From Mustelus asterias (Eukaryota): a stretch of DNA of 64,000 bases. The notes under the pieces are model-generated. The model ran no database searches. It was not told where the DNA came from and saw only the letters and a list, made by a program, of their open reading frames with translations. This document shows positions 590 through 62,484 of this stretch, piece by piece. Within the stretch, counting starts at the first letter, position 1. The number at the start of each line of letters is the position of its first letter. The stretch is from assembly GCF_964213995.1 (NCBI RefSeq), contig NW_027590284.1, positions 62,001 through 126,000 of the forward strand, written 5' to 3'. The translations under genes were made by a program, and so were the position numbers.

Positions 590-822
590 ACGCTTCTCAC
601 ACTTGAAGCAGATAAATGACCTCTCCCCAGTTTAAACCCACTGGTGTCTAACAAGCTGAGAAGACTGAATGATCCCTTGCCGTACTCAGAGCAGGTAAAG
701 GGCATTTCCCCAGTGTGCGTTTCCAGCTCTGACGGTTAATTGAATATCTCTTTATACTCTCCACATTTCCATGGTTTCTGCCAACTGTGACTGTGGTTAT
801 CAATGGTGCTGATTTCTTCCAT
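590..822 (-). pseudogene. Degenerate type-A C2H2 zinc-finger relic
   Basis: Minus strand reads ttgaacATGGAAGAAATCAGCACC...KPWKCGEY...HTGEMPFTCSEYGKG...GERSFICFKCEK with stops and indels. Confidence 0.75.
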
Positions 823-944
823 GTTCAAAACTTTCTACTTTTCAGGTTATGATAAATTCTGTGGCTACATCCAAGCCTGATCTGATGTTTTGTGAGAGTT
901 TCCTGGCCACAAATCCTCTAAGACTGACTATATTAACATTATCT

Positions 945-2830
945 CAGGATTACTACCAGTGCCATGTGCTATTCAGAGTCGAAACAGCAGGATATATTGG
1001 GTGAATACCTGGCTGAAAAGATGATGTGAGAGGCAGGGTTTCAGATTCCTGGGACATTGCGACTGGTTCTGGGGAAGGTGGGACCAGTACAAACTGGACA
1101 GGGCCAGGACTGATGTGCTTGGGGGGTTGGGGGTGTACTTGTTGAGTCATTGAGAAGGTTTAAACTAAAATGGCAGGGAGATGGAAACCTATGTAAGGAT
1201 TCAGAGCAGAGGGTACCAAGAACAAGAGAAAAAGACAGCAAGAAGAATAAGAAAAGTGATAGGCAGAGAATTGAGAGCCAGAATCAGATACGGACACAGT
1301 AAAAAATGGTAGGAACTGGACAACAAATGTTAAAAGGACTAGCCTGAAGGTTTTGTACATGAACGCTTGGAGCATTCAAAATAAAATGGATGAATTTGTT
1401 GCACAGTTAGATGTAAAGGGGTATAATACAGTTGGGACTACAGAGACATAGCTCCAAGGTGACCAAGGATGGGAACTAAACATTGAGGGCTATTCAGTGT
1501 TTAGGAAGGACAGACATAAACAAAAACATGGTGGAGTTGCATTGTTAATTAAGGATGATATGTGGAATATGTATGGGTCAAGTTAAGCCACACCAAGGGG
1601 CAAAAAACATTTGTGGGTGTGGTATACAGACCACCAAATTAATGGTAATGTTAGGAAAAGCATTAGACAGGAAATCAGAGATGCATGTGTTAAATAAATA
1701 TCTGTGATTATAGGTGACTTTAATCTGCATACAGATTGGGTGATCAAATTAATCACATTACAATAGAGGAGGAATTTTTGGAGTGGTCTTCTGGCCCAAT
1801 ACTTTTGAGGAGCTAAGGGAGCATGCCATCTTGAACTGGGTATTGTGCAATGAGAAAGGATTGACAATCTAGTTGTGAGAGAACCCTTGGGGATGAGCGA
1901 CCATAATATGATAGAATTCTTTGTCAAAGTGGATAATGATGTAGTTGATTCTGACACCAGAGTCCTGAATTTCAGTAAAGGTAACTATAATGGATTGAGG
2001 CATGAATTGGCTATGATGGACTGGGAAACATGACTGAAAGGAAGGACAGTGGACAGACAATGTTAAAGTTTATTAGTCACAAGTAAGGCTGACATTAACA
2101 CTGCAATGAAGTTACTGTGAAATTCCCCTCGTCGCCACAGTCCGGCGCCTGTTCGGGTCAATGCATCTAACAACACGTCTTTCAGAATTTGGGAGGAAAC
2201 CGGAGCACCCGGAGGAAACCCACGCGGACACGGGGAGAACATGCAAACTCCACAGAGACAGTGACCCAAGCCAGGAATCGAACCCGGCAGCATTGCGAAC
2301 CACTATGCCACTGTGCCACCCACGGTAGGCATTTAAGGAACAAGTAGGTGAACTTAAAGTTGTTTACTCCTATTTGGCACAAGAGTGGAAAAGGAACTGT
2401 AGCCAAACCATTGCTTCCAAGGGAAATTAGAGAGAGCATTAGATTCCAAGAAGAAGCATAAAAATTGGCAAGAAAAAGCAAAAGACCTGAGGATGGGGAG
2501 CAGTTTACAATACAGCAAAGGAGGACCAAGGAATTGATTCAGAAGGAGAAATTAGAATATGAAAGTAAGCTAGTGGGGAACATAAAAACTGAGTGTAAAA
2601 GGTTCTATAGGTATGTAAAGAGAAAAAGGTTGACAAAACGAATGTAGGCCCTTTACAGTCAGAAACAGGAGAATTCATAACGGGGAATAAAGAAGTGGCT
2701 GAGGAACTAAATTCGTACTTTGCTTCTGAATTCACAAAAGAATATCCCATGATTCAAAAAGGGAGGAAGCGAGAAAATGGGGAACTATAGACTACTGAGC
2801 CTAACGTAGGTAGTAGGGAAGTTGCTAGGG
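945..2830 (+). mobile_element. Decayed CR1-clade LINE (APE endonuclease region), interrupted by a SINE
   Basis: Broken frames give LKVLYMNAWSIQNK..GYSVFRKDR..GGVALLIK, GDFN and SDH motifs, and KRFYRYVKRKR (ORF 2465-2647). Confidence 0.8.
2063..2325 (-). mobile_element. HE1-like V-SINE with alternative 3' tail
   Basis: tRNA-like head GTGGCACAGTGG...GGTTCGATTCC and V-domain GTGGAGTTTGCATGTTCTCCCCGTGTCCGCGTGGGTTTCCTCCGGGTGCTCCGG; tail ends CTTGTGACTAATAAAC. Confidence 0.85.
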
Positions 2831-2834
2831 TCAG

Positions 2835-3476: not shown

Positions 3477-4184
3477 TTACTTATGAATTCGCTGATGTGT
3501 CAGCAGAGTGGACGACTGACTGAATCCCTTCCCACACACACAGCAGATGAATGGCTTCTCTCCAGTGTGAATTCGTTGGTGTCTCAGCAGATTGGCTGAG
3601 TGAGTAAATCCCTTCCCACACTGGGAACAGACGAATGGCCTCTCCCCAGTGTGAACTCGCTGGTGTTTTGCTAGGTTGGATGACTCCTTGAATTTCTTCC
3701 CACACACAGAGCAGGTGAATGGTCTGGCCTCAGTGTGAATTCGCCGGTGTTTTGCTAGGTTGGCTGACTGACTGAATCTCTTCCCACACTGGGAGCAAGT
3801 GAACGGCCTCTCCCCAGTGTGAACTCGCTTGTGTAATGCTAGGTTGAATGACTGATTGAATCCCTTCCCGCACACACAGCAGCTGAATGGTCTCTCCTTA
3901 GTGTGAATCCTTTGGTGTATACGCAAGCTGGATGACTGAATGAATCCCCTCCCGCATCGGGAGCAGGTGAATGGCCTCTCCCCAGTGTGACGGCGTCGAT
4001 GAGTTTCCAGCTGCGATGGGTATTTGAATCCCTTCCCACAGTCCTCACATTGCCATGCCATCTCCTTGTTGTGACTGTAATTATGTTCCGAAAGGCTGGG
4101 TGATTGGTTGAAGTCTTGTCCACACACACAACACGTGTACAGTTTCTCTCCACTGTGGATGGCGCTGTTTTCTTCTAGATTCAA
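3477..4184 (-). CDS. Type-A C2H2 ZNF, 8 fingers; family ATG mutated, first in-frame ATG at 4061 (7 fingers)
   Basis: Open frame with eight CxxC..HxxxH repeats and TGERP linkers; the paralogous ttgaacATGgaag reads ttgaatCTAgaag here. Confidence 0.75.
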
Positions 4185-5129
4185 AACACAATGATATTCA
4201 GGTTACAATAACTTGGCCGACTCCATCAGGTTCTGATACCACGTTTGGTTTGCGTTTCCCCACTGCAAATCCTCCTCTTCTAAATCAAACTGATTTAAAA
4301 CAGCAAAAAGGGAGTGAGAGAGAACCCACAAAAACACAAAGGCAAGTTGTGAAATTGAGCTGAATGAATCTGGTATTTTGTGGGACCGGAGTGAGGAAAA
4401 GGTAAACATAAAAGCTGCTGAATTGTCATAAAAACCCAACTGAGTCACTAAGGTCCTTCAGGGAAGGGTATGTGCCACCTGGTCTGGGTCTACACAAGAA
4501 TCTGGGCACTGTGTGAGGTGACAGAGAGAAGTGGGAGAGGCAGTGGCGAAGAAGAGGGATTTCAAACATCTATAACTCGACGGGAACTTTGACAGAATCT
4601 CCCAAACTCTCAATCTCCATCACCTATAAGGACCAAGGTAGCAGGTAGATGTGAACACCATCACCTCCAAGTTCGCTTTTAACTCACACACCATCCTGAC
4701 TTGTCTGACATCCAGTACTAAAAGAACAGAAAATTCTTCCATATAAATACTGGGAAGACTGAACCCATTGAGTTCAGTTCCCACTACAAATTCCACTCTC
4801 TCACCACCAAATCTACCCCTCTTCCTAGCAACTGTCTTGGGGTGAAATATTTCACCCCAAGATGAGCTTCCAGCCACATATCATCATCATCAAGACTGCC
4901 TATTTGTGACATGAAACTCAGGAGAATGAGGATATAGAGGGAGAATGGAACTGACTGAATTGCTCTGCAGAGAGTTGCCATGGATTTGAGTTGCCAAATG
5001 GATTCCTTCTATGCTGTAATTTTGCATGACTGTAACACTACATACTCTACCTCTCCTTTCCTTTTCTATGTACAGTATGCTTTGCCTGTATAGCACGCAA
5101 AAAACAATACTTTTCATTATACACTAATC

Positions 5130-5855: not shown

Positions 5856-6159
5856 CACATTTTTGGACAAGGGATAATAATAAATCGAATCAAATAGGTA
5901 ACATTGACAAAGTGCTATATATTCCAAGACAAGAAATAGGGAATCATAAATAACATAGTATATAACATACAACTACGTTAAACATATCTCTGTCCCATAC
6001 TAATTTACTGTTCATTTAAATATTAGCCCTCTCCTGGGAAACTCCCCCTTTAATTGTGAACATTGGGTAAGAGGCTATCCTATTATCCAGATAAATAAAT
6101 CTGTCAAACTTAGGGAGTTAAAGGTTGTCTATGTCTTTGCGAGAGAAAGAAAAAGATAC

Positions 6160-6545
6160 CTGGGCCTAGTCCTGCTCCTAATTCCGGTGTCCGTCTGTAA
6201 CCCTTCCAGAGTGTGCAGCCTCCCTGGATTCACTTCATTCCCTTCAGTTGCTGCAAGTCCCCAATTTCCCCCAGAATGAGAAAAGAAATGGAAAGAGGGA
6301 AACATTGATTTCCTCCCAGATGTTGGCCCAGAGGAGGAAGTTTCCCTCTGAAGCTCGTTGGCCAACTTCCGCGTTGTGATGTCACAATGGAGCCCTGCCT
6401 GAAGCAGCCAATAGGAATCAATCTGCTCCACGGTGACGTCCTGATGTTCCAGTGCGCAGGCTCGGAAGCTGTCGCCTCTCCACCCCCTCCCCCCGGATAG
6501 GCATCAATTGATGCCCCTCCTCCGGGTTCTGGCCAATCGGGAAAA
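6160..6545 (-). promoter_or_regulatory. CpG-rich promoter and exon 1 of the 3477 ZNF (donor CCCAG/GTATCT at 6160)
   Basis: CCAAT boxes (6408, 6532), GTGACGTC, ETS-like CTTCCGC; near copy at 49731-50060. Confidence 0.65.
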
Positions 6546-6673: not shown

Positions 6674-7754
6674 ATTTATTGCAGTAAAAGTCTGAAATGA
6701 ATGAAACCTTATTCTTTGGTTTATTCCATTGGGATTGTCTGGGAATTGTTTATTTGAAGATTATCAGTCTCTACGGAGATCATAACAGAGGTATTTCTAG
6801 TTTTGTTATTGTACATGTTAGATATATTATTTTTGGTGCTGCAGTAAAGTACATTTATTTTTTATTTCTATTCTTGGAATATAGTAATATAGTTGTGTTA
6901 TATATTTCCAGTCAGTGAGACATTGCAGCACAAAAAGAGTCCATTTGGCAACTCGAGTCCATGTCAACTCTCCATAGAACAATCCAGTGGGTCCCATTCC
7001 CCCTCTGTATCACTGTCCTACAGGTTTATTTCTTTTGAATGACCAACATCATTTGAAATCATGGGTTCTCTTTCTCTCTGCTTCCACCATCCACATGTGG
7101 GGTGAATTCCAGTTTATGACCACTTGAAGTCCAAACAAACATTCAACACATATTCCCTACCTCTCTATAATAAAGTAATATAGCACTTTTACACAAATGA
7201 TAGTCCAGTTCTATATGAATATAAGGGATATATTGGTGAACAGCTTGCCTGAAGATTGTCAGGTCTTTGTGTCCTGGAGCATGACCCAGCAGCTTCAGCA
7301 GAATCGGGAGGGTGAAGATTCGGTGCAGAATGTGTGGGACAGAAATTTACAACTTTTCAGGAATAAAAGAATAGAAAATAGTTTAATTGAATCGAGAATT
7401 GTCCATCCTGAATTTTTTTCTATGTGCACGGTGTTGACTTTTGTAAACTTCTTTCACAGGATATTAGAAGGGGAGGATTTACAGGACAGAAATATCAAAA
7501 CAAAACATTACGTTCAGATCTGACAGTCACTCAATTAATCACAACGTGAATATCATTGGCCTTTGACTCGAGAAGGAGAATTGTTTGGGTTTGTTTCTGT
7601 CTGTGGGAAAAGATTGAACATTAGTGTGACTGGAAAAGCACTGAGAAGTACAAACCTGAGTGTGTGTTCAGGTTACACAGCCTGAAAAGCATTGCCCCAT
7701 TTACATTGAGAGGGAGTGTACATCTGTTCTCAGTGAGGACGAGGCTTCATCTGA

Positions 7755-8864
7755 TTGTCAAACCTGGAGGGACAGGCGGCCTCCCGCATCAGGGAGAAAC
7801 AGTGGAAATGTGGGGACTGCGGAAAAAGATTCAAAGCACCGTGTGAGCTGGAGATTCATCGACGCAGTCACACTGGGGAGAAGCCATTCACCTGCCCTGA
7901 TTGTGGGAAGGGATTCTCTCAGTTATCCAACCTGCTGACACATCAGAAAATTCACACTGGGGAGAGGGCATTCACCTGCTCTGAATGTGGGAAGGGTTTC
8001 GCTGATTCATCTCGTCTTCTGACACACGGACGCATTCACACGGGGGAGAGGCCTTTCACCTGCATTGAGTGTGGGAAGGGGTTCGGAGATTCATCCAGCC
8101 TCCGGAGACACAAGCGAGTTCACACTGGGGAGAGGTCATTCCCTTGCTCAGTGTGTGGGAAGGGATTCAGTGATTCCTCTGCTCTGCAGAAGCACCAGAG
8201 AGTTCACACCGGGCAGAGGCCATACACCTGCTCTGACTGTGGGAGGGGATTCACTCGGTCATCTCACCTGCTGATACATCAGCGAGTCCACACTGGGGAG
8301 AGGCCGTTCACCTGCACCGTGTGTGGGAAGGGATTCAGTGCATCATCTACCCTGCAGAACCACCAGGCAGTTCACACTGGGGAGAGGTCATTCACCTGCT
8401 CCGTGTGTGGGAAGGGATTCACTCAGTTATCAACCTTGCTGCGACATCAAGCAGTTCACACTGGAGAGAGGCCGTTTCCCTGCTCTGTGTGTGGGAAGGG
8501 ATTTACTAGGTCCACTAGTCTGCTGACATACCAGCGAATTCACTCTGGAGAGAGACCATTCAGTTGCACTGAGTGTGGGAAGGGATTCACTGATTCCTCC
8601 TGCCTCTGGAAACACCGGCGAGTTCACACCGGGGAGAGGCCATTCACCTGCTGTGTGTGTGGGAAAGGATTCACTGAGTCGTCCAGTCTGCACGCACACC
8701 GTCGAGTTCACACTGGGGAGAAGCCTTTCACCTGCTCTGAATGTGGGAAGGGATTTGCTGATCCTTCCAGCCTGTGGAAACACAAGCAAGTTCACACGGA
8801 GGAGAGAGGCTGTTCACCTGCTCTGAGTGTAGGAAAGGATTCACTGAGTCATCCAACCTGCTGA
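7755..8864 (+). CDS. Type-B C2H2 ZNF, 12 fingers, no ATG anywhere in the frame; acceptor near 7459
   Basis: 369-codon open frame with 12 finger repeats; the family start accATGgag reads atcAGGgag at 7791; a frameshifted 13th finger follows. Confidence 0.7.
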
Positions 8865-8924
8865 GACATTATGGCAGTCACACCGATTAGAGACCTTTTA
8901 AATACTCTGCCTGTGGGCGTTAAT

Positions 8925-12467: not shown

Positions 12468-13297
12468 TCACTTGTGAATTCGCTGGTGTCTTAGCAGGTG
12501 AGACGACCGTTTAAATCTATTCCCACAGTCAGAGCAGCTGAACGGCCTCTCCCCAGTGTGAACTCGCTGGTGTGTGAGCAGATTGGAGATCTGAGTAAAT
12601 CCCTTCCCGCACACAGAGCAGGTGAATGGCCTCTCCCCAGTGTGAACTCGCTGGTGTGCCAACAGGGTGGATGAATGACTGAAACCCTTCCCGCACACAG
12701 GGTGACTCCCCAGTGTGAACTCGCTGGTGTATTAGCAGTTGGGATGATGTTCTAAATCTCTTCACGCAGTAAGAGCAGCTGAACGGTCTGTCCTCAGTGT
12801 GAATGCGCTGGTGGCCCATCAGAGTCTGAGAGCTTTTGAAGCTACGCTCACAGTCAGAGCATTTAAACGGTCTCTCATTCGTGTGGGTGACACGGTGTGT
12901 CTGCAGGGTGGATGAATGACTGAATCCCTTCCCACACACACAGCAGGTGAACGGCCTCTCCCCAGAGTGAACTCGCTGGTGCCTCCACAGGGTGGAACGA
13001 TCACTGAATCCTTTCCCACAGTCTGAGCAGGCGAAAGGTCTCTCCCCGGTGTGAACTCGCTGGTGCGTCAGCAGGCTGGATAACTGAGTGAATCCTTTCT
13101 CACACACAGAGCAGGTGAACGGCCTCTCCCCAGAGTGAACTCGCTGGTGTCTCAGCAGGGTGGTTGATATACTGAATCCCTTCCTACACACGGAGCAGGT
13201 GAACGGCCTCTCCCCAGTATGAATTCGCCAGTGTGTCCAGTGCAGATGGGCACTGGAATCCCTTCCCACAGTCCCCACACTTCCATGGTGTCTCCAT
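12468..13297 (-). pseudogene. Type-B C2H2 ZNF, ~10 fingers, frameshifted in finger 1 and near 12700
   Basis: ATG GAG ACA CCA TGG AAG TGT at 13297; fingers are split between ORFs 12529-13350 and 12468-12698. Confidence 0.8.
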
Positions 13298-14169
13298 GGT
13301 GCCAGTGTCCTTTCGATAATCAGTCGATTCCACATCCAAGTACAGAACACGTGTACAGTTTCTCCTTGCTGTGAATGGGGTGACGTTTTTCAGGCTGTGT
13401 TACTGGTTGAAGCTCTTTCCACAGTCAGTTCACTGGAACACTCTCACTCAAGTGTGTGGGGTCTCCATTCTTGTCCAGTCACACTGATGTTTGAAATCTT
13501 TTCCCACAGACAGAACAAACAAACATTTCTTCTCATACATTCAAACGGCAATTATATTCAGGTCCTGATGAATCCAGTGACTTTGTAACATCTTGTTGTG
13601 ACGTTTGGTGTGAGATTTCAGTCTGTAAATTCTCTCCTTCTAATATCCTGTTTATAGAAGTTATCAGTGTAAGTATAGAACTGAAATTCAAAACAGACCA
13701 TTCTAGTTTCCATGGAATATTCTTTGCTTTCTCATTCCCTAAAGTTGTAAATCTCCATCCCACACACCCTCCCCCCATTGTCATACTGCTGTATCTCATA
13801 CACACCCTCCCAATTCTCCTGAAGGTGCTGATTCAGGCTGATTGACAGACCCATGCTCCTGTCCAGTACAAAGAGACCTGAAAATCTTCATGCAGGCGGC
13901 TACCCAATGTCCACATTACTAAACATATCATTGATCAGCAATAGAAAGGAGATGTGAGGACCAATTTTATTCACGAGTGGTCACGACCTGACCTCACTGC
14001 TTCTGTGCATGGTGGAATCAGAAATGATCAATGATTTGAAAAATAAATCAGATAGGTGTGAAGGAATTAAAAAGGGAACAGAGTTATGGAGGGGAAATGG
14101 GACTGAGTGGATTGATGTACAGAGAGTCAGCATGGACTTCTTCCAACTACCACTGGAATATATACAAAA

Positions 14170-15722: not shown

Positions 15723-15769
15723 CCATTGCTGCATTTCCTTCCTGAAGCCACATTTGTCCAGTGGGGCCT

Positions 15770-16560: not shown

Positions 16561-16855
16561 GACCTGAACCCCCTGCAGTACATGTGGTGTTGGTACATCC
16601 ACACTGCTGGTAGGGAGGGAATTCCAGCATTTTGTCCCAGCGACTGCGAAGGAATTGCGATGTATTTCCAAGTCAGGATGGTGAGTGACTTGGAGGGGAG
16701 TTTGCAGCTGGTGGTGTTCCCATGCCTCTGTTGCCTTTGTCCTTTTAGATGGAAGTGGTTGTGTGTTTGGAAGGTGCTGTCTAAGGACCTTTGGTGAATT
16801 CTTGCAGTGCGTCTTGTAGATAGTACACACGGCTGCCACTGAGCTTCGGTGAGAG
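16560..16855 (-). mobile_element. CR1/L2-group LINE C-terminal fragment
   Basis: AAVCTIYKTHC...SFAVAGTKCWNSLP, typical of a LINE ORF2 end; smaller copies at 4620-4705 and 49515-49600. Confidence 0.6.
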
Positions 16856-28554: not shown

Positions 28555-29339
<785 letters not shown>

Positions 29340-37620: not shown

Positions 37621-37882
37621 AAATCAGATTGACAGCCAGATCTGTGTAAGAACTAGAAACTCACATTCAGTATGTTTCTCAAAGCTCACCACAATGCTGC
37701 AAACACTCAGCTCATCAACAACAAGCCTCTGGCATTGCAAATGTTAACTCTGTTTCTCTCTCTCCACAGAAGCTGCCAAAACCTGCTGAGGATTTCCACA
37801 ACTTCCTGTTTTCATTTCCCATTTCCAGAACTTTCTGTTTTTTGTTTCCATTTCCAGCTTCTCCAGTCTTTCACTGCGATTA

Positions 37883-45899: not shown

Positions 45900-47960
45900 G
45901 AACATAATAATTAGGAACAGGGGGAGGCCACTCGGCCCCTCGAGCCTGTTCCGCCATTCAATAAGATCATGGCTGATCTGATTGTAACCTCAACCCAACA
46001 TTCCTGCCCACTACCCTCACCAATAATCTTCCATCTCCTTGTTAATCAGGAGACTATCTTGCTCTGTCTTCAAAATATTCCAAGATTCTGCTTCCTCTGC
46101 CTTTTGAGGAAGAGTTCCAAAGATCCATGATCCTCTGAGAGAAAACACTTCTCCCCACCTCTGTCTTAAACACATTTTTAAACAGTGTCTCCTTGTTCAA
46201 AATTCTCCTGCAAGAAAAAAAAAATCATCCTTTCCACATCAACCCAGTCAATAGCCCTCAGAAACTTAAAAGGTTTCAATCAAGGCCCCTCTTACTCTTC
46301 TAAACTCCAGTGGATACAAGCCTAGACTCTCCAATCTTTCCTCATAAGACAACCTGCCTATTTCTGGTATTAGTCTGGTAGACATTCTCTGAACTGCTTC
46401 CAATGCATTTACATCTTTCCTTAAATGAGGAGTTCAATACTTTAACAACACTCCAGATGTGGTCTCACCAGTGTCCTGTATGACTGAAACATAAACTCAC
46501 TTCTTTTGTAACCAATTTCCTCACAATAAACAATGACATTCTATTAACTTTCCTCATTACTTGCTGTACCTGCATTCCAGCCTTTTGTGATTCATGCACT
46601 AGGACACCTCTGAATCTCAGAGCTCTGCAACCTCTCACCATTTAATGTTTTTTAAAAATTTGGCAGGAATTCCTGCCAAAATTGATAATTCCACATTTGC
46701 CCACGTTATACTCCATTTGCCAAATCTTTGCCCACTAGCTGAACTTATCTACATCCCTTTGTGGCCTCCTTACATCCTCTTCACACTTACTTTTCTACCT
46801 TTGTGTCCTCAGCAAATTTAGCGACCATGCTTGCATCCAAGTCATTTATATAAGTTGTTAAAAGTAGAGGTCCCAGTTCTGATCGCTTTGGCACATCACT
46901 CGTCACATCCTGTCAACCAGATAAAGATCCATGTGTGCCAACTCTGTTTCCCGTTAGCTTGCCAATCTTCTTTCCATGCCATATTACCCCCACACAGAGA
47001 TTCTATTTTCCACATTAAGCTTTGATGTGGCAGCTTATCAAATGCATTTTGGAAATCTAAGTACAGTACATTCACCTTTGCTGCCCCATTATCCAATATA
47101 TAAAGTCACCATCTCCCAGATGTCCCCTTGAGAGGGAGAGCTGACTGGTGGTCACTTAACCTGAGGATCATAAATTCATAAGATATAGGAGCAGAATTAG
47201 ACCATTCGGCCAATCGAGTCTGTTCCACCATTCGATCATGGCTGATAACCTCCTCATCCCCATTTTCCTGCCTTCTCCCCATAATCCTTCAACCCCATTA
47301 CCAATTAAAAATCTGTCCAACTCCTCCTTAAATTTGCTCACTGTCCCAGCATCCACCACCCTTTGGGACAGCGAATTCCACAGATTCACAACTCTTTGGG
47401 AGAAGCAGTTTCTCCTCAACTCTGTTTTAACTTTGCTGCCCCTTATCCTAAGGCTATGACCTCTCATCTTAGAATGCCCCAGAAGAGGAAGCATCCGTTC
47501 CACGTCTACTTTATCCACACCTTTCATCATCTTGGATCATCACACCTCAGGTGAGGGGCAAGATTGAGGAGACGGCACCTTCATGAATAACCTTGGTTGG
47601 CACGAGAATTGAAACTGTGCTGTTGGTGTCGCTGTGCATCACAAACCAGCCACCCGGCCAACTGAGCTAACCGACCCCCTTTATCCAAAGTATATGTGAC
47701 TCCTTCAAAGAACTCCAATAAATAGGTTGAATATGAATTCCCTTTCTCAAACCGTGCTGACTCTCTGGTTGTCTGAATTTTTCTCATTCTCATGATATCT
47801 TTAATAAAGTTTTAATATTTTCCCTACATCAGGTTTTATATTAAGTGGTCTTTAGTTTCCTTTTTGCCTCCCTCCTTTTTTTGAATAAAGGAGTTACATT
47901 TGCTACTTTGCAATCTACTGGAATCTTCCTCAAATCTCGCGACTTTTAGATAATTAAAAT
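45900..47960 (-). mobile_element. Stack of decayed CR1 fragments
   Basis: LYLDFQNAFDKLPH, LLEFFEGVT, FSQRVVNLWNSL; CR1 tails at 45900 and 47175. Confidence 0.8.
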
Positions 47961-48085
47961 GGTGCTATTTCCTTCCATGTTCAAAATTCTCTGCCGTTCA
48001 GGTTACAATACATTGTGCAATTCCATCCAATCCTGATCTGATGTTTTGTGCAAGTTTCCTGACCCCAAATCCTCCCCTTCTAAGA
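47960..48085 (-). pseudogene. 5' stub of a type-A ZNF exon fused behind the 3' UTR of the 48201 gene
   Basis: TTAGAAGGGGAGGATTT..TTGAACATGGAAGGAAATAGCACCATT, then cut by CR1; paralogue of 800-925. Confidence 0.7.
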
Positions 48086-48200
48086 CCAATTATATCAACA
48101 CCTATAACAGAGCTGGAGTCACTTTTCAATTCAGCAGAAACAGACCCAAAGGTACATGATTCAGTCTGAACATGAAAACAACAAAATCCAATCACAATAG

Positions 48201-49070
48201 TTACTTGTGAACTCGCTGGTGTCTCAGCAGATTGGATGACTGACTGAATCCCTTTCCACACTTGGAACAAGTGAACGGCTTCTCCCCGGTGTGAATTCGC
48301 TGGTGTGTCAGCAGAGTGGATGAGTGAGCAAATCCATTCCCACACTGGGAGCAGGTGAAGGGTCTCTCCCCAGTGTGAGTGCGCTGGTGTACAGTGAGTT
48401 GAGATGATTGCTTGAACCCAGTCCCACAGTGAGAGCACCTGAATGGTTTCTCATCAGTGTGAACACGTTGATGGTAGTGCAGATTTACAGAATTTTTAAA
48501 GCATTTCCCACAGTCTGGACATTTAAAAGGTCTCTCATCAGTGTGAATCCGCTGGTGTGTGAAGAGGGTGGCTGACTGAGCAAATCTCTTCCCACACTGG
48601 GAGCAAGTGAATGGCCTCTCCCCAGTGTGAATTCGCTGGTGTAATGCGAGGTTGGAAGACTGAGCGAATCCCTTCCCACACTGGGAGCAGGTGAACGGCC
48701 TTTCCCCAGTGTGGATTCGCCGATGTTTCAGCAGATGGGATGAGTCAGTGAATCCTTTCCCACACTGGGAGCAGTTGAATGGTCTCTCGTCAGTGTGAGT
48801 TCTCTGGTGTATGTGTAAGCTGTTTGACTGAGTGAATCCCCTCCCACACTGGGAGCAGGTGAATGGTCTCTCCCCACTGTGACTGCGCCGATGAATCTCC
48901 AGCTGGGAAGGGTAATCGAATCCCTTCCCACAGTCCCCACATTTCCACAGCTTCTCCCTGTTGCGACTGCAATTATGTTCCGAAAGGCTGGATGATTGGT
49001 TAAAGTCTTGTCCACACACAGAACACGTGTACAGTTTCTCTTCACTGTGAACGGTGCTATTTCCTTCCAT
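48201..49070 (-). CDS. Type-A C2H2 ZNF, 9 canonical fingers plus 1 degenerate finger
   Basis: [16 protein letters not shown].. intact to HK*; acceptor tttcacag/GGTTTTAG at ~49179. Confidence 0.92.
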
Positions 49071-49730
49071 GTTCAAAACACAATGATATTCAGGTTACAA
49101 TAAATTGGCTAACTCCATCAGGTTTTGATATAATATTTGGTTTCAGTTTCCCAACTGCAAATCCTCTTCTTCTAAAACCCTGTGAAATTGATTTAAAACA
49201 GAAAAAAGGAAGTGAGAGAGAACCCACAAAAACACAAAGGCAGTTTGTGAAATTGAGCTGAATGAATCTGGTCATTTGTGGGGCTGGCACTCGGAAAAAG
49301 TGATCATGAAAACTGCTGGATTGTCATAAAAACCCAGCGGGTTCACTGATATCCTTCAGGGCAGGAAATCTGCCACACGGTCTGGACACAAGACTCTGGA
49401 CACTGAGAGAAGACAGAGAGAAGTAGGAGAAGTCGGGGTGAAGGAGAGGGATTTTGTACATTGACAACTCAATGAGAACTTTGACAGAAAGTTTCCCAAA
49501 CCCTCAACCTCCACCCACCTAGAAGGACCAGGGTAGCAAATAGATGGGAACACCATCACCTTCAAGTTCCTCTCCAACTCACACACCATCCTGACTTATC
49601 TGACATCCAGTACTAAAAGAACAGAAATTTCTTTCATATAAACACTGGGAAGACTGAACCCATTGTCTTCAGTGTCAAAGTGAGGGAGCTAAAGGATGTC
49701 AATGTCTTTGAGCGAGAAAGAAAAAGATAC

Positions 49731-50420
49731 CTGGGCCTCGTCTTGCTCCTAATTCCGATGTTGTCTGTTTCCTTTCCAGAGTCTACAGCCTCCCTGGATT
49801 CACTTCCTTTCCCTTCAGTTGTTGCAAGTCCCCAATTTCCCCCAGAATGAGAAAAGAAATGGAAAGGATGAAACATTGATTTCCTCCCAGATGTTGTCCA
49901 GAGGCGGAAGTTTCACTCTGAACATCGTTGGCCAACTTCCGCATTGAGACGTCACAAAGGAACCGAGCCTGAATTAGCCAATAGGAATAAGTCTGTACCG
50001 ATGTGACGTCCTGGAGTTCCAGTGCGCAGGCCCGGGCGCGCAGACATGGGAGCCCCGCCCCCTCCCATTGATTCCCCCGCCCCCTGCCATCTCCTCGAGC
50101 CAAGGTTTCCAGGCAACCGGCTGGCGGTTCCGGCCAGAGCGAGAAGCCGCGCGGTGATCTCCCCCTCCCCCCTCTCTCGACGGCAGCGGTTGCTCCAAAA
50201 AGAGATCGAGAGCGACCGCTGGCGGCAGCCGCACTGCGCCTGCTCCGGACAGCTCGGCTCAGCAGCGCTCTCTGCGCCTGCTCCGGACAACTCGGCTCAG
50301 CAGCGCTCTCTGCGCCTGCTCCGGACAGCTCGGCTCAGCAGCGCTCTCTGCGCCTGCGCGCTGGGCTGCCAGCTGAGGGAGTGGGGGAGGGGACTTTGCA
50401 AAATCTCTTCCCATCATTTT
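49731..50420. promoter_or_regulatory. CpG island, bidirectional promoter and exon 1 of the 48201 gene (donor at 49731)
   Basis: GGCGGAAGT, GACGTCAC, CCAAT (49978), GTGACGTC, GC boxes and NRF1-like repeats. Confidence 0.75.
50235..50360 (+). repeat. 38-bp tandem repeat x3.3 within the promoter
   Basis: TGCGCCTGCTCCGGACAGCTCGGCTCAGCAGCGCTCTC at 50235, 50273, 50311 and (partial) 50349. Confidence 0.95.
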
Positions 50421-50469
50421 CTTCCACGTCCCGCAGTTTGATTTGAAACAGAACAGCTTCTGTTTGTAG

Positions 50470-51097
50470 CTTCACCACAGACTCAAACTTCACACACAGA
50501 CTCCAACTTCACACACAGACTCAAACTTCACCAGACTCAAACTTCACACACAGACTCAAACCTCACACACAGACTCAAACTTCACCACAGACTCCAACTT
50601 CACACACAGACTCCAACTTCACACACAGACTCCAACTTCACCACAGACTCAAACTTCACACACAGACTGAAACTTCACCACAGACTCAAACTTCACCACA
50701 GACTCAAACTTCACCACAGACTCAAACTTCACCACAGACTCAAACTTCACCACAGACTCAAACTTCACCACAGACTCAAACTTCACACACAGACTCAAAC
50801 TTCACACACAGACTCAAACTTCACCACAGACTCCAACTTCACCACAGACTCCAACTTCACCACAGACTCCAACTTCACCACAGACTCAAACTTCACCACA
50901 GACTCAAACTTCACCACAGACTCAAACTTCACCACAGACTCAAACTTCACCACAGACTCCAACTTCACCACAGACTCCAACTTCACACACAGACTCAAAC
51001 TTCACACACAGACTCAAACTTCACCACAGACTCAAACTTCACACACAGACTCAAACTTCACCACAGACTCAAACTTCACACACAGACTCAAACTTCA
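50470..51097 (+). repeat. 18/19-bp minisatellite, ~34 copies
   Basis: CTTCAC(C/AC)ACAGACTC(A/C)AA units. Confidence 0.97.
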
Positions 51098-52110: not shown

Positions 52111-52850
52111 TTCCAAATAAACCTGTTGGACTTTAACCTGGTGTTGTCAGACTTCTTACTACATGGTGCATAATGGGTGTGTTATTTATGGATTTGTATT
52201 ACAGTTGATTTTGTTTAATTCCAGAATAGTATTGTAACTACACTGTATATTTTCCAGTCAAAGAGTCATCAGAGCACAAGATAAATCAGTTCAGCAGCTT
52301 GAGTCCGTGCCCAGTCTCTGTCGGGGAATCCACTCAGTGCCATTTTTCCTCGATATCCCTGTTCCCCAGTACGTTTCATTCCTTCAAGTGCCCGACCAAT
52401 TTTATTTTGAAATCACTGGTCGTCTCCACTTCCACCACTCTCATCGTCAGTGAGTTCCAGAACATGATTGCTTGCTCCCTAAGTCACGTTCTTCCGCACC
52501 CATCTGTATCTCTAATCATGTAATAGAGTTCTGAATATTGCATACATTTTTAGTCCACTAAATATGCAAATTTTTTATATGCTTAGACACAAGCCTGTGT
52601 GAAGATTTCGGGAATATGTGTCCTGTACATGAAACAGTCAGCACAGATCTGTCGATTAGGATGAATCAGCACCCTCAGGACAATGTCTATTTCAGGTCCA
52701 GCAAAGTGAGAATGGAGGGAGAGTGTTTGGGATGGAGATTTACAAATTTTCAAGAATGAGAGGAAAGAATGTTCCACAGAAACTAGGATTGACTGTTCTG
52801 AGTTTTTATCCTGTACTGACAGCAATGATTTTTGTGAATTTCTTTCACAG

Positions 52851-53130
52851 GCTATTAGAAGGGGAGAATTTACAGACACAAATCTCAACAAACATGACAT
52901 TAGGATCTGACAGTCACCCAATTATTTAGGATCTGAATACCATCGGCATTTGAAACTAGAATGGAAAATGTTTGTCTGTTCCTTCAAACTGTTTAAACAT
53001 CAGTGTGACCGGAAAATCACTGAGACACATACACTCGAGTGAGAGTATTCCAGTGAACTGACTGTGGAAAGAGCTTTAACCAGTTACACAGCCTGGAAAA
53101 GATCGAAGGATTCACAGTGAGGAGAGTGGC
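52851..53130 (+). pseudogene. Type-B ZNF exon truncated within the fossil-finger leader
   Basis: Acceptor tttcacag/GCTATTAGAAGG, then FQ*TDCGKSFNQLHSL; ends against the 3' UTR of the opposing gene. Confidence 0.75.
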
Positions 53131-53393: not shown

Positions 53394-54449
53394 TCAGAGC
53401 AGGTGAATGGTCTCTCCCCAGTGTGAATTCGTTGGTGTACAGAGAGTTGAGAAGATCGCACAAGATCGCACCAGTCCCACAGTGAGAGCACCTGAATCAG
53501 TGTGAACACGTTGATGTCGCGTCAGTTCCCCAGAACGTTTATAGCACTTCTCACAGTCTGGGCATTTAAAAGGTCTCTCGTCAGTGTGAACTCGCTGGTG
53601 TGCAGTTAGTTGAGTTGATTGTCTGAACCCAGTCCCACAGTGAGAGCATCTGAAAGGTCTCTCGTCAGTGTGAACACGTTGATGGGACATCAGTTTCTCA
53701 GAGGTTTTGTAGCATTTCTCACAGTTTGGACATTTAAAAGGTTTCTTGTCTGTGTGAACTCGCTGGTGTGTCAGCAGGATAGATGAGGTAGTGAATCCCT
53801 TCCCACATTCAGAGCAGATAAATGGCCTCTCCCCAGTGTGAACTCGCTGGTGTTTCAGCAGGTCAGATGACTGAATGAATCCCTTCCCACACACGGAGCA
53901 GGTGAACGGTCTCTCCCCAGAGTGAACTCGCTGGTGAACAGTGAGGTCAGACGATCGTCTGAACCCAGTCCCACAGTGAGAGCACCGGAACGGCCTCTCC
54001 TCAGTGTGAACACGTTGATGGCGCATCAGCTCCCCAGAACTTTTATAGCACTTCCCACAGTCTGGACACCTGAAAGGTCTCTCGTCAGTGTGAACTCGCT
54101 GGTGACTCAGCAGGTGGGCTGAAATAGTGAATCCCTTCCCACACTCAGAGCAGGTGAATGGTCTCTCGCTGGAGTGAACTCGCTGGTGTGTGAACAGAGA
54201 GGATGACTGAGTGAATCCCTTCCCACATGTGGAGCAGGTAAATGGCCTCTCCCCAGTGTGACTGCGCCAATGCATTTCCAGCTTGGATGGGGAAATGAAT
54301 CCCTTCCCACAGTCCCCACATTTCCACAGTTTCTCCTCAGTGTGACTGCGATTGTGTCTCCACAGGTCAGATGATTGTCTGAAGCCGTGTCCACACACAC
54401 AACACGTGTACGGATTCTTCCCACTGTGAAATGTGCTTTTTCCTTCCAT
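53394..54449 (-). CDS. Type-A C2H2 ZNF, 11 intact fingers; last two fingers lost by a frameshift near 53495
   Basis: [16 protein letters not shown]..; the ancestral HK* stop remains at ~53333. Confidence 0.82.
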
Positions 54450-54511
54450 GTTCCAAATCTGATGATATCAAAGTTACGATAAATTGAGCCACTCCGTCAG
54501 CTTCCCAACGG

Positions 54512-54705
54512 CAAACTCTCCACTTCTGATACCCTGTAAAACTGATTTAAAACAGGAGACACGGAGTGAGAGAGAGAGAGCCCACAGAAACACACAGGCA
54601 GCTTGTCAAACTCTCCCCTTCTAACACCCTGTAAAACTGATTTAAAACAGGAGACACGGAGTGAGAGAGAGAGAGCCCACAGAAACACACAGGCAGCTTG
54701 TCAAA
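54512..54705 (-). repeat. 95-bp tandem duplication of the splice-acceptor region
   Basis: CCCTGTAAAACTGATTTAAAACAGGAGACACGGAG.. at 54532 and 54627. Confidence 0.92.
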
Positions 54706-54849
54706 TTAATCTGAATCAATCTGGGAATTTGTGGGGTCGGCGCTGAGAAACATTGACCATGAAAACTGCCAGATTGTCACAAAAACCCAACTGGCCTCTC
54801 TGGGAGGAGAGAGAAAGAGGTGAAGGAGAGGGATTTTGTATTTCTACAA

Positions 54850-55525: not shown

Positions 55526-55533
55526 AAACAGTT

Positions 55534-56440: not shown

Positions 56441-56809
56441 TACAGGAGATGTGAGGAAGAGTGTTTTTAGACAGTGAGGGCTAATGACCCAAAACTTGCT
56501 GCCCATGATTGGGGTTGAAATGGACATGATGAATAATTTCAAAAAGAAATAAGATAGACATTGGAGGAAAAGAAATCTGCAAAGATATGAGGATGGAATG
56601 GGACTGGATTGCCCTAGACAGATGGCATGGACTCAATGGGCCAAATGGCCTCCTCTGTGCTAAAACAACTTCCTGTAATCTCACATTGTAATATTACCTG
56701 TGGAGTTCAAATATCACTCAGGTAAATCTGTGCCACACTCCCTCCAAGGCCATTCTGTCCTTTCTAAGGTATGTTGCTCAGAACCAAGCACAGTTCTCCA
56801 GGATTTGTG

Positions 56810-57065
56810 AATCTCAGGACTTTTCCAGTCACACTGAGACCTGAAATCTTATCTCACACACAGAATCGACAAACCTGTTACCTTCCACATTCAGAAGCTG
56901 CTGATATTCAGGTCCTGATTTTTTTCAAGTGACTCCATCAGATCACGATGTGATGTTTGATTTGTGTTCCCTGTCTGTCAATTCTCCATTTCCAGCACCC
57001 TGTAAATTTACAGAAACCATCACTGTCTGTCCAGGATAGAAATTCACAACATTCTCTACTCCATA
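56810..57065 (-). pseudogene. Type-B ZNF acceptor/leader relic with no finger array
   Basis: Homologous to 36100-36330 and 13470-13710 (GAATTTCTATCCTGGAC..tttacag/GGTGCTGG..GGACCTGAATATCA..GAATGTGGAAGG). Confidence 0.7.
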
Positions 57066-57943: not shown

Positions 57944-58104
57944 AACTATATATCAAGAGCAATGTGGTTGACTCTTAAAATGCCCTGAGATGGCCAAGCA
58001 AACCACTCAGTTCAAGGACAATTAGGGATGGACAATAAATGCTGGCTCAGCCAGCAATTCCCACATTCCCTGGACGAATAAAAAATTCCTGGAGACTTCA
58101 GTCC

Positions 58105-58480
58105 AATCCGGGAGAGTTGGTAACTGGTCCAGGCTCATAACGCATGCGCCCTGCTGCACATTGTTCCTATAAAGATGGCGGCCGCTAACCCGGGCCTGGA
58201 GCCGCTCAGCTCCGACTCTGTTCTGTACCGATTGAAGCGATACCGGGAACATGTTATCTGAATTGGGGCATCCACTAGGTATTTATGAAGCCTCCCAGCC
58301 CACTCCGCTGCTTCTATCCCTCCCCGGTCACCCAGCGGCTCCATTACTGAACCTCACTCCATTGTTTCTTTCCGACTCCTCGCAGCTCCAGTCACAGCCC
58401 GGCCTGCGCATGCTCCGGTCAGAGTCAGACACTGCGCATGTTCCGGTCAGAGCCAGGTACTGCGCGTGCGCAAGAATTGC
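58105..58480. promoter_or_regulatory. CpG island, probable bidirectional promoter between the 53-57 kb(-) and 61.5 kb(+) ZNFs
   Basis: YY1 AAGATGGCGGC (58172); NRF1-like CGCATGCGC (58141), TGCGCATG (58405, 58433) and TGCGCGTGCGCA (58461). Confidence 0.7.
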
Positions 58481-59119
58481 AGTAATGTGGATAGGACACA
58501 GTCTCACCCGCAGAGAATGTTGGGTAACCACCTCGCCATTCAAACCCATATTGTTCAATAGAAAATACGATTTGCGATCTGATTATGATTGGTACCATTG
58601 GGCCAAGGTTCAAATGTGTTACTTCAATTCATTTGGCAACTAAGCAGCATAGGCCTTCCAGCACATTTTTGTCCTGGGTGTGATTGACAACATAACAATC
58701 ACCTGCATTTAGATGTGAACTCGCTGGGGTGAACAAGTGATTTGTGCCCTCTTGGACAGAACAGTTAAACTATCCGTCACCAATAAGAGGGGTAGTTAAA
58801 ATGCTTTGAGCTTTTAAAGTTATAGATTGTTAACCACTGAGGAAATCCCTTTGCGAACGTTAAGTGTTTGAGTGGTCTTCCTCTGGTGTAATTCTGCTGT
58901 TCTATCGGTAAATGGGATGACTGAGTGAATCAATTTTCACATTCAGCTGGGAAATAATTTGTTGATGGTGGGATTTAATCCAAAGGTTTACAGCTCAGAC
59001 GGGAATCTCAAAAATTGGGCAAAAAATGCTGGCCTTGCCAGCAATGCCCACACCCCACGAATTATTATTATTTTTAAATAGTTCCTTTTGAAGTGCTCTC
59101 CATCTCCCTGTCTCCTTCC

Positions 59120-60060
59120 TCAAAGCATCAAACTTAAGGGAAAAGCATATAGCTACACAGAGGTGAGTGGCAGGTCAGATGATTGGCTGGAATATAAAGA
59201 ACAGTAGAGAATTACTAAAAGGTTAATTGGAAGAAAAACATTAGAGTATGAGAGGAAGTTAGCTGTTAATGTAAAAATGAATAGCAAGAGTTTCTATAGG
59301 TATTCGAAAAGGAAAAGAGGAATAAGGTGAGTGTTGGCTCTCAAGAGAATGAGAATGGGGAGTAATAGTAGATAATAAATGGCCAATGAAATAAACAAAT
59401 CTTTGCTTCTGTCTTCACTGTAGAAAATACAAAACCAGCCAGTCCTAGCTGTAAATCAGGAGGTGGAAGGGAGAGTGAACTAGGAGAAATTACAATGACG
59501 TGGGAAGCTGTACTGAGCTGCAGCTGACAAGTCTCTGGGTCACGATGGAATTCATCCTAGCATCTTAAGAAGGTGGTTAATGAGATAGTGACAGTAGATT
59601 TGTTGGTGTTAATTTTCCAAAGTTCCCTAGATTCTGGAGAGGTTCCATCAGACTGGAAAGTAGCAAATATAAGCCCTCTAATTCAAGAATGGATGGTGGC
59701 ATGAGACAGGAAATTTAGGCCAGTTAGATAGACATCTGTTGTGGGGAAGATGTTAGAATCAATCATTAAAGAGGTTATAGCTGGCCACTTTGGAAAAACT
59801 CAAGGTAATCAGGAAGAGTTAGCATGGTTTAATGAAAGGGAAATTGTGTTTAACCAATTGGAGTTCTTTGAAGAAGTAACGTGTGGATAGAAGGGAACCT
59901 GTGGATCTTCTGAATTGAATTCCAGAAAACATGTGATAAGGTTCCACATCAAAGGTTATCATGGAAAACGAAATCTAGTAGTGCAGGGGGTAACATATTA
60001 CCCCCTGCACTGCTTCTGATAGAAGATTGGCTGTCAGAAAGTAGAGAGAATGCATATTTA
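59120..60060 (+). mobile_element. Old CR1 RT fragment
   Basis: DKSLGHDGIHP, VPSDWKVANI and FQKTCDKVPHQRL remnants. Confidence 0.75.
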
Positions 60061-61533
60061 TTGTTTAAAATGGGAATGGAGGTGAATGTAATGCTGAGAC
60101 CGGTAGCAATCTGTGTGGTTGTTCTTGATGCTGTCAGGGTGAGTTCACCCTCACAGGAAGGAAGACTGTTCATGGTGATAACATCAAACTGACGCCGGCT
60201 GTTTCATTCTCAGGTAACACAACTTCCTGTTTCTCTGCTGCCGGTTCCAAACCTCACATCTCACTTCTGAGCAGAAAATAAATCCAGGGACCACAATCTG
60301 GTGAGAACATCTGTCAATGCGGCCTATATCTGTCCACAGAGTCAGGGCAGAGTCACACAGATCACATTGCGGTGACATTTACAAATGAGCCTATTATTTC
60401 TGTTCAGAGTTTCCATTCCCAGATATAACTGGCTGTGTTTGTGGATCAGTCAGAGTTCGCTCTGATCCCCATAGCCGGGAACTGATAGCCTGCTCCCTTA
60501 TATTTTATATCATTGTGTGTTGCTTGTTTCCTGTTTCTCAGCTTTTATCTTTGACAACCTCATCTTTCTGCTTTTTAAAATCTCTCTCAATTTTTCTCTC
60601 AGTCTTTCTGTCTCTCCTCTGTATCTTTCTCAGGCTCTGTGTGTTCCTATTTCATCGAGATGTTCAAAATCATGAAGGGTTTCTGATTGATTATAGAAGG
60701 AAAATCGGGGAGAAAAACAGAAAACCTCGGCAGGTCCTGCAGCATCTGTTCAGAGAGAAACAGTTAACATTTTGAGTCCATATGATTCTTCAGGACAGGA
60801 AAAACGTGGGTTTTTAGATCAGGGAATATGATGGGGAGATTTAATAGAGATGTTTAAAATGACAAATGATTTATGATAGTGTCAATGGAGAGGAACTGTT
60901 TCCCAGGAGCAGGAGGATCTGTCGATGGAGAGAATCTATTTCCCAGGAGCAGGAGGGTCTGTAAGCAGAGGACAAAGAGATTTAACATAATTGACAGCCT
61001 AACTGGAGGGCATGATAAGGAGATTGTTTTACACAATAATTTGATGTGATCTGAAATGCACAAACTGACAGCTGCTAGAAGCAGGTTTAATAGTAACTTT
61101 CAAAGGGAATGGGATAAATACTTGCAGACGGTAAATTGGCAGAGTTATGGTGAATGGGATTAATTGGACAGTTAACTCGTCTTTGTGACATTCTGAATAT
61201 TCTATTTGACTTAAAGTGACTTTGTGTGGAATTTGCACATTCTCTCCATGTCCACATGGAGAAGCAATTGGGTTTTTATGACAATCCAGCAGCTTCATGG
61301 TGACTTTTTCCTCCTGCTGGCCCCAGAAATTACCAGATTCATTCAGCTCACTTTGACAACCTGCCTTTGTGTTGTTGTGGGTTCTCTCTCACTCCCTTTT
61401 TTCTGTTTTAAATCAATTTCACAGGGTTTTAGAAGGGGAGGATTTGTGGTCTGGAAACTCAAACAAAACATCACATCAGGATCTGACGGAGTCACTCTTA
61501 ATATCGTAGCCTGAATATCACTGGACTTTGAAC

Positions 61534-62484
61534 ATGGAAGGAGAAAGCATTCGTCACAGTGGGGAGAAACCATACACGTGTTCTGTGTGTGGACGAGGCT
61601 TCAACCAATCATCTGATCTGTCAAAGCACGAATGCAGTCACAGCGGGGGGATGACTTGGAAATGTGAGGAATGTGCAGCAGTATTCAGCTCCTCAGCTGA
61701 GCTGGAAACTCACCAGTGTGCTCACACTGGGGAAAGACCAATCAGCTGCTCTGAGTGTGGGAAAGGATTCAGTCACTTATCCCAGCTAATGATACACCAG
61801 CGAGTTCACACTGGGGAGAGACCATTCACCTGTTGAGTGTGGGAAGAAATTCACTCAGTCATCCAACTTACGGACACACCAGCGAGTTCACTCAGGGGAG
61901 AAACCATTTACCTGCTCCAGATGTGGAAAGAAATTCCCTCATTTGTCTCATCTGCTGGCTCACCAGCAAGTTCACACTGACCAGAAACCTTTTAAATGTT
62001 CAGACTGCGGGAAATGTTTTAAAAGTTCCAGGGAACTGTTGTCCCATCAATGTGTTCACACTGATGAGAAACATTCAGGTGCTCTCACTGTGGGACTGGG
62101 TTCAGACATTCATCTCATCTCACTGTACACCAGCGGGTTCACACTGGGGAGAGGCCGTTCACCTGCTCTGACTGTGGGAAGGGATTCACTCAGTTATCCA
62201 ACCTGCTGACACACCAGCGAGGCCACACTGAAGAGAAACCGTTTACCTGTTCCCAATGTGGGAAGGGATTCACTCGATCATCTGACCTCCTGACACATCA
62301 GCTTGTTCACACTGGGGAGAGACCGTTCACATGCTCCAAGTGTGGAAAGGGATTCACTACCTCATCGCACTTGCTGAGACACCAGCGAATTCACTCTGGC
62401 GAGAGGTGGTTCATCTGCTCCGAGTGTGGGAAGGGATTCACTCAGTCATCTGTCCTGCTGACCCACCAGCGAATTCATGAGTAA
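61534..62484 (+). pseudogene. Type-A C2H2 ZNF, ~11 fingers, frameshifted near 61835 and 62070
   Basis: [16 protein letters not shown]..; the frame breaks at TGT-TGA-GTGT; terminal HE* at 62484; acceptor at ~61424. Confidence 0.82.

Follow-up and report, generated by a model that had tools for sequence, protein, structure and literature searches.

The 64,000-nucleotide stretch of the Mustelus asterias genome analyzed here (contig NW_027590284.1, positions 62,001 to 126,000; hereafter the window) carries a tandem cluster of C2H2 zinc-finger (ZNF) genes, and the analysis of these genes together with their relatives showed a coding region composed of fingers only, located behind a conserved splice acceptor and a stop-containing leader. 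Judged by its sequence signatures, the family extends across sharks and skates and numbers at least 2,265 copies in the present assembly; the foremost candidate for a cofactor handle within the protein is its constant first finger. A six-frame scan of the window gave 103 canonical C2H2 fingers, organized into exactly 11 arrays of 8 to 12 fingers between 3477 and 62484, with the features of the tandem C2H2 (Kruppel-type) class: CxxC-x12-HxxxH fingers, TGE(K/R)P linkers, a single exon, and assignment to Pfam zf-C2H2. Four relics lie between the arrays, or five if a duplicated acceptor near 54610 is counted, in agreement with an earlier note, made from the sequence of this DNA alone, that had counted 11 arrays and about five relics. 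The wider sample comprised 864 kb with a total of 119 arrays, taken from the window, the DNA flanking it and blocks on six further contigs; 3 arrays at block edges were left out, 116 were scored, and the acceptor was located in 110 of these.

A related splice acceptor and leader precede every one of the 11 arrays in the window. Type 1 leader is about 110 bases long and leads to the start MEGKS followed by a degenerate finger, while the commoner type 2 is about 350 bases long, contains three dead fingers with common stops, and leads to the start MEKP six codons ahead of the first Cys. The window genes belong to the family by its marks, which are the shared acceptor and leader, the MEGKS or MEKP start and the W..PSxLE signature of the first finger. 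Among 100 sampled genes with a usable ATG, the distance from start to first Cys is 6 codons in 59 and 15 codons in 24, and no more than 15 codons in 88; the claim that coding starts close to the first finger therefore holds, the exceptions in the window being the 7809 gene, which has no in-frame ATG, and the 4133 gene, which has lost the first ATG (genes are named here by a position within them). For the 48201 gene, the predicted model consists of a CpG-island exon ending at 49731, an intron of 551 bases, the acceptor at 49180, two in-frame stops and the ATG at 49070. This one stretch of the window was compared with contigs from four runs of other organisms at 80% identity, of which the RNA origin is a guess: one putative RNA contig joins 49115 to 49774, two plus-strand putative RNA records stop at 49178 and 49182 with their remainders unaligned, and other putative RNA contigs continue into the intron. 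We infer two-exon transcripts from shared CpG promoters, at which the RNA contigs hint weakly. The dead-finger leader is about as conserved as the coding fingers, with 80-90% identity to the majority sequence (35913-36265, minus strand; 39190-39516, plus; 44404-44754, minus; and relatives), and contains 2-5 upstream ATGs per gene in 41 of 49 genes, with which it may dampen translation. After the stop of most arrays there is also a common tail similar to LQGLDSAVIAAVNHIQD, for example at 35102-35160 (minus strand), which is read in the frame of the 35102 gene and in three Heterodontus models and is non-coding in most copies here.

The lack of a fused effector was supported by several observations. 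An in-frame stop is present between the acceptor and the first finger in 108 of the 110 genes with a recognizable acceptor, and one further broken copy is open from the acceptor if its stop-bearing first finger is counted. The acceptor phase is split 50/31/29 among these 110 genes, and over the first 110 bases of 30 leaders the pN/pS (ratio of the proportions of non-synonymous and synonymous differences) is 1.05-1.15 in all three frames: the leader evolves neutrally. No shared upstream coding exon was detected for 109 genes, since family-wide sharing ends about 250-500 bases upstream of the acceptor, with the exception of promoter types that are used in both orientations. Pfam searching of three finger open reading frames (ORFs) gave no match to KRAB, SCAN or BTB among the best 25 families listed, and an N-terminal SCAN or BTB domain is also at odds with the short coding stretch ahead of the fingers; nor did 143 of the 234 stop-free upstream peptides, the 91 repeat-covered ones being left out, give anything above the Pfam cut-off, with six weak matches below it. 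A KRAB domain on an upstream coding exon was likewise not seen, either across the leader stops or in the 143 peptides, and a genome-wide KRAB search returned 0 of 76 candidates, its controls being equally silent. No 28-residue acidic domain of FiNZ type on a separate coding exon was recognized, as judged by the upstream peptides of the 109 genes and not by a FiNZ profile. HMMER searching with the open leader found 13 linker-bearing representatives, 10 of which were compared and shared no common N-terminal domain, and a linker query in a word-indexed protein search matched only itself. Thus the claim of no recognizable KRAB, SCAN or BTB domain stands for the 3 ORFs and 143 upstream peptides, and that of an elasmobranch expansion without fused effector is supported by gene anatomy, paralogs and database proteins.

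Three ways of hiding a coding exon were considered and discarded. A conserved open frame just before the acceptor turned out to be the end of the intron, being interrupted by stops in 29 of 49 genes and lacking codon periodicity; exon 1 is not coding, its frames differing among near-identical copies (7 spliced models, 12 loci); and read-through or selenocysteine insertion at the TGAs of the dead fingers does not agree with a last stop that is TGA in 30, TAA in 8 and TAG in 1 of 49, nor with a leader length that is not kept in frame (27/9/13). It is very improbable that an effector of some members was missed, being encoded by a distant or cryptically spliced exon or consisting of a short motif, with the leader as a fossil spacer still coding in skates. 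The majority leader is, to be sure, in phase with the start codon and has one stop, 2 of the 110 genes are open from the acceptor, and two skate proteins, P0034 and P0111, share an N-terminus that contains PxVVLRRL and runs on in frame into the leader, PxVVL presumably being an HP1-binding-like motif, so that skates possibly possess a coding upstream exon. The stops in 108 of 110 genes and the neutral evolution of the leader speak against such an effector, as do the absence of any match to residues 1-34 of the skate N-terminus in this genome among 108 candidates and the fact that the other database N-termini are mutually unrelated. The 20837 gene is one of the two sampled genes without a stop between acceptor and ATG; compensating frameshifts keep its frame free of stops from within the intron to the end of the leader (20525-20836, plus strand), and this opening looks accidental because its 98% paralog on contig C87 has a stop.

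The element shared by these proteins was found in the fingers themselves. When the first full finger was chosen by a 'W or PS' criterion, the pattern W-K-C-x-D-C...P-S-x-L-E-x-H-R-R was present in 55 of 63 subfamily representatives, with W in 84%, Pro at helix position +1 in 93% and Glu at +5 in 95%. Internal fingers have F at the first position, with Pro at +1 in 19 of 429 and Glu at +5 only rarely. The pN/pS of the first finger at +1, +2 and +5 is 0.12, 0.12 and 0.10, while synonymous sites vary; at +1/+5, finger 2 has values of 0.78/1.87 and the last finger of 0.54/1.30, and neither shows such a freeze. The base-contact positions -1, 3 and 6 of the first finger still vary (pN/pS 1.51). Since the residues at +1 and +5 are frozen beside variable contacts, the first finger looks like a docking site, position +5 being one that we take to point away from DNA. 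The signature was detected in 22 of 35 proteins labelled as chondrichthyan, including Heterodontus, Pristiophorus, Scyliorhinus, Chiloscyllium and two skates, against 1 of 103 others, and this single record bears the leader of the family. A homodimer prediction for fingers 1-2 gave a score of zero, the alignment being unused.

We tentatively prefer a reading in which DNA of many kinds, probably repeats, is bound by these finger-only proteins, with the first finger bringing in a partner common to them all. The variable fingers would be responsible for recognizing the diverse DNA targets, likely repeats among them, as expected from the fold class; the role that a fused KRAB or FiNZ domain has elsewhere would fall to the constant first finger; and the non-coding CpG-promoter exon would be spliced to the conserved acceptor, with translation from the finger exon. 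By analogy, a transposon link is plausible. More doubtful is the extended version, a KRAB-like surveillance system of several thousand shark and skate genes in which the frozen first finger would dock a universal cofactor, while shuffling and positive selection would yield anti-transposon specificities. The constancy of the first finger favors a partner over pure steric blocking. The latter, in which finger-only proteins without dedicated partner would occupy repeat or promoter DNA and block others, the first finger being kept for folding, stability, import or anchoring, is unlikely: it agrees with the failure to find an effector exon, with the variable contacts of the first finger, which therefore probably reads DNA, and with the 8 of 63 representatives lacking the signature, some of them truncated, but leaves unexplained why residues unlike those of all other fingers are frozen from sharks to skates, and why the last finger, also an array end, shows no such freeze. 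If a partner of the first finger exists, silencing by ZNF proteins would have a third route in addition to those through KRAB and FiNZ; if none exists, steric action would gain support, or huge ZNF expansions would need no silencing role. For the question of how effector-less arrays act, a 30-residue finger constant from sharks to skates offers a direct test.

Selection on the fingers was estimated by counting substitutions between paralogs along minimum spanning trees (152 unique arrays, 62 intact pairs); the zinc ligands carry no weight here, as the pattern that defines a finger fixes them. The linkers are conserved, with pN/pS of 0.22-0.27 between paralog pairs, 0.27 for intact pairs against 0.56 for broken pairs, and the helices of internal fingers are diverse, with 301 fingerprints among 429 fingers. 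The statement that helices vary while linkers stay fixed is thus correct for the internal fingers and fails for +1 and +5 of the first. The overall pN/pS at positions -1, 3 and 6, 1.2-1.6, mixes two regimes. Between 45 subfamily representatives it is 1.4-1.6, with intervals above 1. A shuffling subfamily, of which 20 genes were sampled, has arrays of 5-22 near-identical fingers whose ends are largely fixed and whose middles are reshuffled; here the contact pN/pS reaches 2.1-2.7 by counting, and a codon model of 70 fingers gave an omega (ratio of non-synonymous to synonymous rates) of 3.25 at the contacts (p=6e-4), the remaining helix positions having 6.1 and the scaffold 1.0, from which it follows that recombination inflates omega. 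This subfamily, the best arms-race candidate, is absent from the window and present on the same contig; its loci are at G000:C252 (about 138000-265000) and on C87, C71, C115 and C145, with a leader ending in LSTQERGKDTCTMEKPWK. It appears that diversifying pressure gives rise to new specificities, which are then held, a pattern that fits a sequence-specific function and names no target. The shuffled arrays, with their fixed ends and reshuffled middles of 5-22 near-identical fingers, resemble that of PRDM9, a point in favor of a main role on RNA or in recombination and not in transcriptional repression; such a role is hardly to be expected, as there was no sign of a SET domain or any other catalytic part, and the linkers have the canonical TGE(K/R)P form of DNA-binding arrays.

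An exact 23-base start pattern of the family occurs in 2,265 copies in the assembly, against none for the reversed control, and marks 39 of the 119 arrays sampled. Scaling gives an estimate of roughly 6,900 arrays, which may be too high, as haplotype duplicates may be present among the unplaced contigs. The proteins that match best are gene models of sharks and skates made automatically. Turnover by birth and death, as proposed from the sequence, is evident from relics, broken arrays and block duplicates with 92-99% identical copies. The genes of the window have copies of this identity in the same order on other contigs, indicating that multi-gene blocks, broken genes included, duplicate together; the window itself is a mosaic of segmental duplicates, 3470-40280 corresponding to C87:1501000-1546000 and 43470-62490 to blocks of C145. 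At 99.4% identity, 3 other loci carry both frameshifts seen in the 61579 gene; these lesions are therefore real, not one-off sequencing errors, and were duplicated after arising. Among the 116 scored arrays, 83 are intact, 3 nearly intact and 30 (26%) broken, so that the estimate of about half the copies broken describes the window (5 of 11) and not the wider sample. The idea of a whole 'zinc-finger chromosome' was dropped, fingers being found in 4 of 20 pieces along C71 and clusters also on C12, C16 and C23.

These copying events raise the alternative of a mostly unselected expansion, by segmental duplication in a recombination-prone region, with a subset kept foldable and no transposon conflict. 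It would account for the colinear 92-99% copies on other contigs, the duplicated frameshifts, the 30 broken arrays, a repeat density at background and the 22 of 174 arrays that are sequence-identical, some of which are the same place sampled twice. We consider it rather improbable, since 83 of 116 arrays are intact, linker pN/pS is lower in intact than in broken pairs, and the contacts are conserved in close copies and exceed 1 in the shuffling subfamily. As for the repeats, shared ones cover a fraction of 0.27 of the window and of 0.29 (SD 0.15) of 20 background pieces from the same genome, and reverse transcriptase (RT) sequence covers 0.076 against 0.074, both repeat-cover values being underestimates because the library was built from 200 kb of background only. 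Enrichment of the window in retroelements is thereby rejected: the DNA is not confirmed as unusually retroelement-dense, and a special tie between the cluster and local retroelement density is not supported.

Against the recruitment of a common partner by the first finger stand a number of observations. The RNA evidence comes from contigs of relatives, and a YAG with at least 9 pyrimidines follows the last stop in 25 of 96 genes, which leaves room for cryptic splicing. The frequencies of W and PS are partly circular because of the way the first finger was selected; Zfp568, too, has Pro at +1 in ordinary fingers that bind DNA; some intact genes, including the 20837 gene, have no constant first finger; and the constancy could serve folding, stability or nuclear import. 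The local repeat density is that of the background, and broken copies have multiplied too, so that copy number is partly hitch-hiking. In 34 close colinear pairs the contacts are conserved (pN/pS 0.22-0.29), the high omega depends on the alignment of shuffled fingers besides its inflation by recombination, and for 41 internal fingers of the intact window genes the contact omega is 1.44 (p=0.28) against 0.70 on the scaffold. The excess of change at contact residues that the earlier note had asked for is accordingly found in one neighboring subfamily (2-3) and mildly between subfamilies, is not significant in the window, and is reversed between close copies. Its description otherwise stands as to the cluster and the effector-less architecture, and not as to retroelement density and the variability of the first-finger helix; its interpretation stands as to an elasmobranch expansion, the lack of fused effector and turnover, in part as to contact diversification, and not as to the link with retroelement density. 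What it missed is the constant first finger and the joint copying of multi-gene blocks.

Six of the 11 window genes were scored intact, those with arrays at 4133 (by an internal ATG), 20882, 39535, 44385, 48941 and 54404 (with a frameshifted tail), and five broken, with arrays starting at 7809, 13197, 29294, 35894 and 61579. Four gene pairs are arranged head to head around CpG-rich or promoter-like segments; a general alternation of orientation was tried and rejected (63 of 109 neighbors, p=0.125). At the left end, a relic with leader, start motif and decayed fingers (590..940, minus) is followed by the intact-scored gene 3477..4290 (minus), with 8 fingers in one frame, a lost first ATG and a damaged acceptor, for which an in-frame ATG at about 4061 would give 7 fingers. 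Between head-to-head genes 4133 and 7809 lies a promoter-like segment (6100..6500), 87% similar to 49673-50035, with a predicted non-coding exon 1 (donor after 6160, minus strand). The broken gene 7460..8890 (plus) has 12 canonical fingers, a late frameshift and a leader of three dead fingers in addition to its missing in-frame ATG, and the broken gene 12468..13647 (minus) has frameshifts in finger 1 and near 12705. A CpG island of a promoter type common to other family members (15751..16750) separates head-to-head genes 13197 and 20882 and contains a tRNA-Val(CAC) gene (15933-16005, minus), one of 7 tRNA genes in the 864 kb sampled. It is followed by a broken non-LTR (long terminal repeat) RT remnant (16912..18978, plus; Pfam RVT_1), which we take to be CR1/L2-like; RT-like pieces are also present at about 29892-31060, 43098-43452, 45894-47533, 55690-56434 and 62862-63382.

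The intact gene 20728..21592 (plus; ATG 20837) has 8 fingers, its constant first finger being internally deleted. The broken gene 28555..29671 (minus) carries stops and a frameshift, with a promoter-like segment upstream (31350..31700) common to up to 15 other sampled genes, and the broken gene 35102..36265 (minus; ATG 35912) has lost 2 bases at about 35493, behind finger 5, when compared with a 97% paralog. Head-to-head genes 35894 and 39535 flank a CpG island (37151..37650). Two intact genes with dead-finger leaders follow, 39190..40269 (plus; ATG 39517) with 8 canonical fingers and one shortened, and 43477..44754 (minus; ATG 44418 or 44403) with 11 fingers. Next come a relic consisting of leader and start motif without array (47958..48087, minus), the intact exon 2 of the 48201 gene (48201..49179, minus; ATG 49070), with one degenerate and 9 canonical fingers, and the CpG island with its predicted non-coding exon 1 (49731..50550, minus). 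A GC-rich unit is present in three copies at about 50230-50350, and a long tandem array of a short unit (50470-51097) lies directly upstream of this promoter. Beyond a relic dead-finger leader without array (52750..53125, plus), the gene 53394..54710 (minus; ATG 54449), with a tandemly duplicated acceptor region, 11 in-frame fingers and a frameshifted tail, was scored intact. A further relic leader without array (56806..57051, minus) and a CpG island between head-to-head genes 54404 and 61579 (58051..58600) precede the broken gene 61425..62484 (plus; ATG 61534), with frameshifts near 61835 and 62073 and intact paralogs elsewhere. The shared promoters (37380-37535, 58170-58185) contain several GCCATCTT / AAGATGGC motifs, presumably YY1-like, in addition to CCAAT and GCATGCGC motifs; no histone motif was found in the sampled blocks. 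A young interspersed repeat family has 85-95% identical copies at 25816-26780, 51450-52160, 3099-3181 and 37063-37166.

We know of no described KRAB-ZNFs in cartilaginous fish. Among the passages available from published work, eight rows of Supplemental Data 1 of Wells et al. 2023 (PMC10547256) give 475 to 3,586 tandem ZNF ORFs for cartilaginous fish, while a word search of its main text found sharks never mentioned; the same paper reports that ZNF and retroelement counts correlate across animals independently of accessory domain. A loss of KRAB-box families was described for the whale shark (PMC8455134); in the catshark, chromosomes 13 and 17 carry clusters of recently duplicated zinc-finger genes (PMC11979771); and TRIM33 together with KRAB-like proteins was proposed for bony fish (PMC11603059, PMC10380595). 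Word searches of the available text of PMC10620051 and 10.1101/2025.06.08.657570 gave no mention of zinc fingers, and the available parts of PMC12513265 and PMC11620358 contain nothing on finger-only architecture. Shark ZNF counts and clusters are thus already in print; for the finger-only architecture or the constant first finger no prior description was found in the literature searched, which left subscription journals and most supplements outside.

Clusters of KRAB-ZNF genes have a well-known layout in tetrapods and lobe-finned fish. The shark genes resemble these clusters in their fast-turnover tandem arrays, conserved linkers and variable positions -1/2/3/6, as far as described in PMC10380595. 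Unlike KRAB-ZNFs, they have no KRAB, SCAN or BTB exon, and the only shared non-generic protein feature is the constant first finger. With the cyprinid FiNZ-ZNFs, in the passages seen of PMC10547256, they share a lineage-specific expansion into hundreds of clustered tandem genes, one large finger exon and the lack of KRAB; positive selection is reported for FiNZ fingers, and here the contact residues diversify in part of the family and are conserved between close copies. FiNZ, however, is a 28-residue domain on its own coding exon, whereas the upstream exon here is non-coding and stops block the frame, and transposon repression was shown for FiNZ-ZNFs (PMC10547256) and is putative in the shark family. 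Actinopterygian KRAB-like ZNFs acting with TRIM33 are similar in offering a proposed silencing route of fish without TRIM28 (PMC11603059, in part), but carry an N-terminal KRAB-like domain, of which none was found here in searches without a dedicated KRAB-like profile. The catshark clusters belong to the same family, and the passage on them (PMC11979771) notes recent duplicates, not architecture or function. The same is true of the shark and skate models named 'zinc finger protein 850/271/239-like', which have the start motifs, leader remnants and first finger; these names are automatic, and many of the models fuse neighboring genes and pieces of long interspersed elements. As a precedent for a C2H2 finger serving as a protein-contact surface, dimerization through a single finger is reportedly known in Drosophila, and fingers of Ikaros and FOG are used for protein contact. 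Unlike those contact fingers, the one described here is the first finger of thousands of variable arrays, and its interaction is putative.

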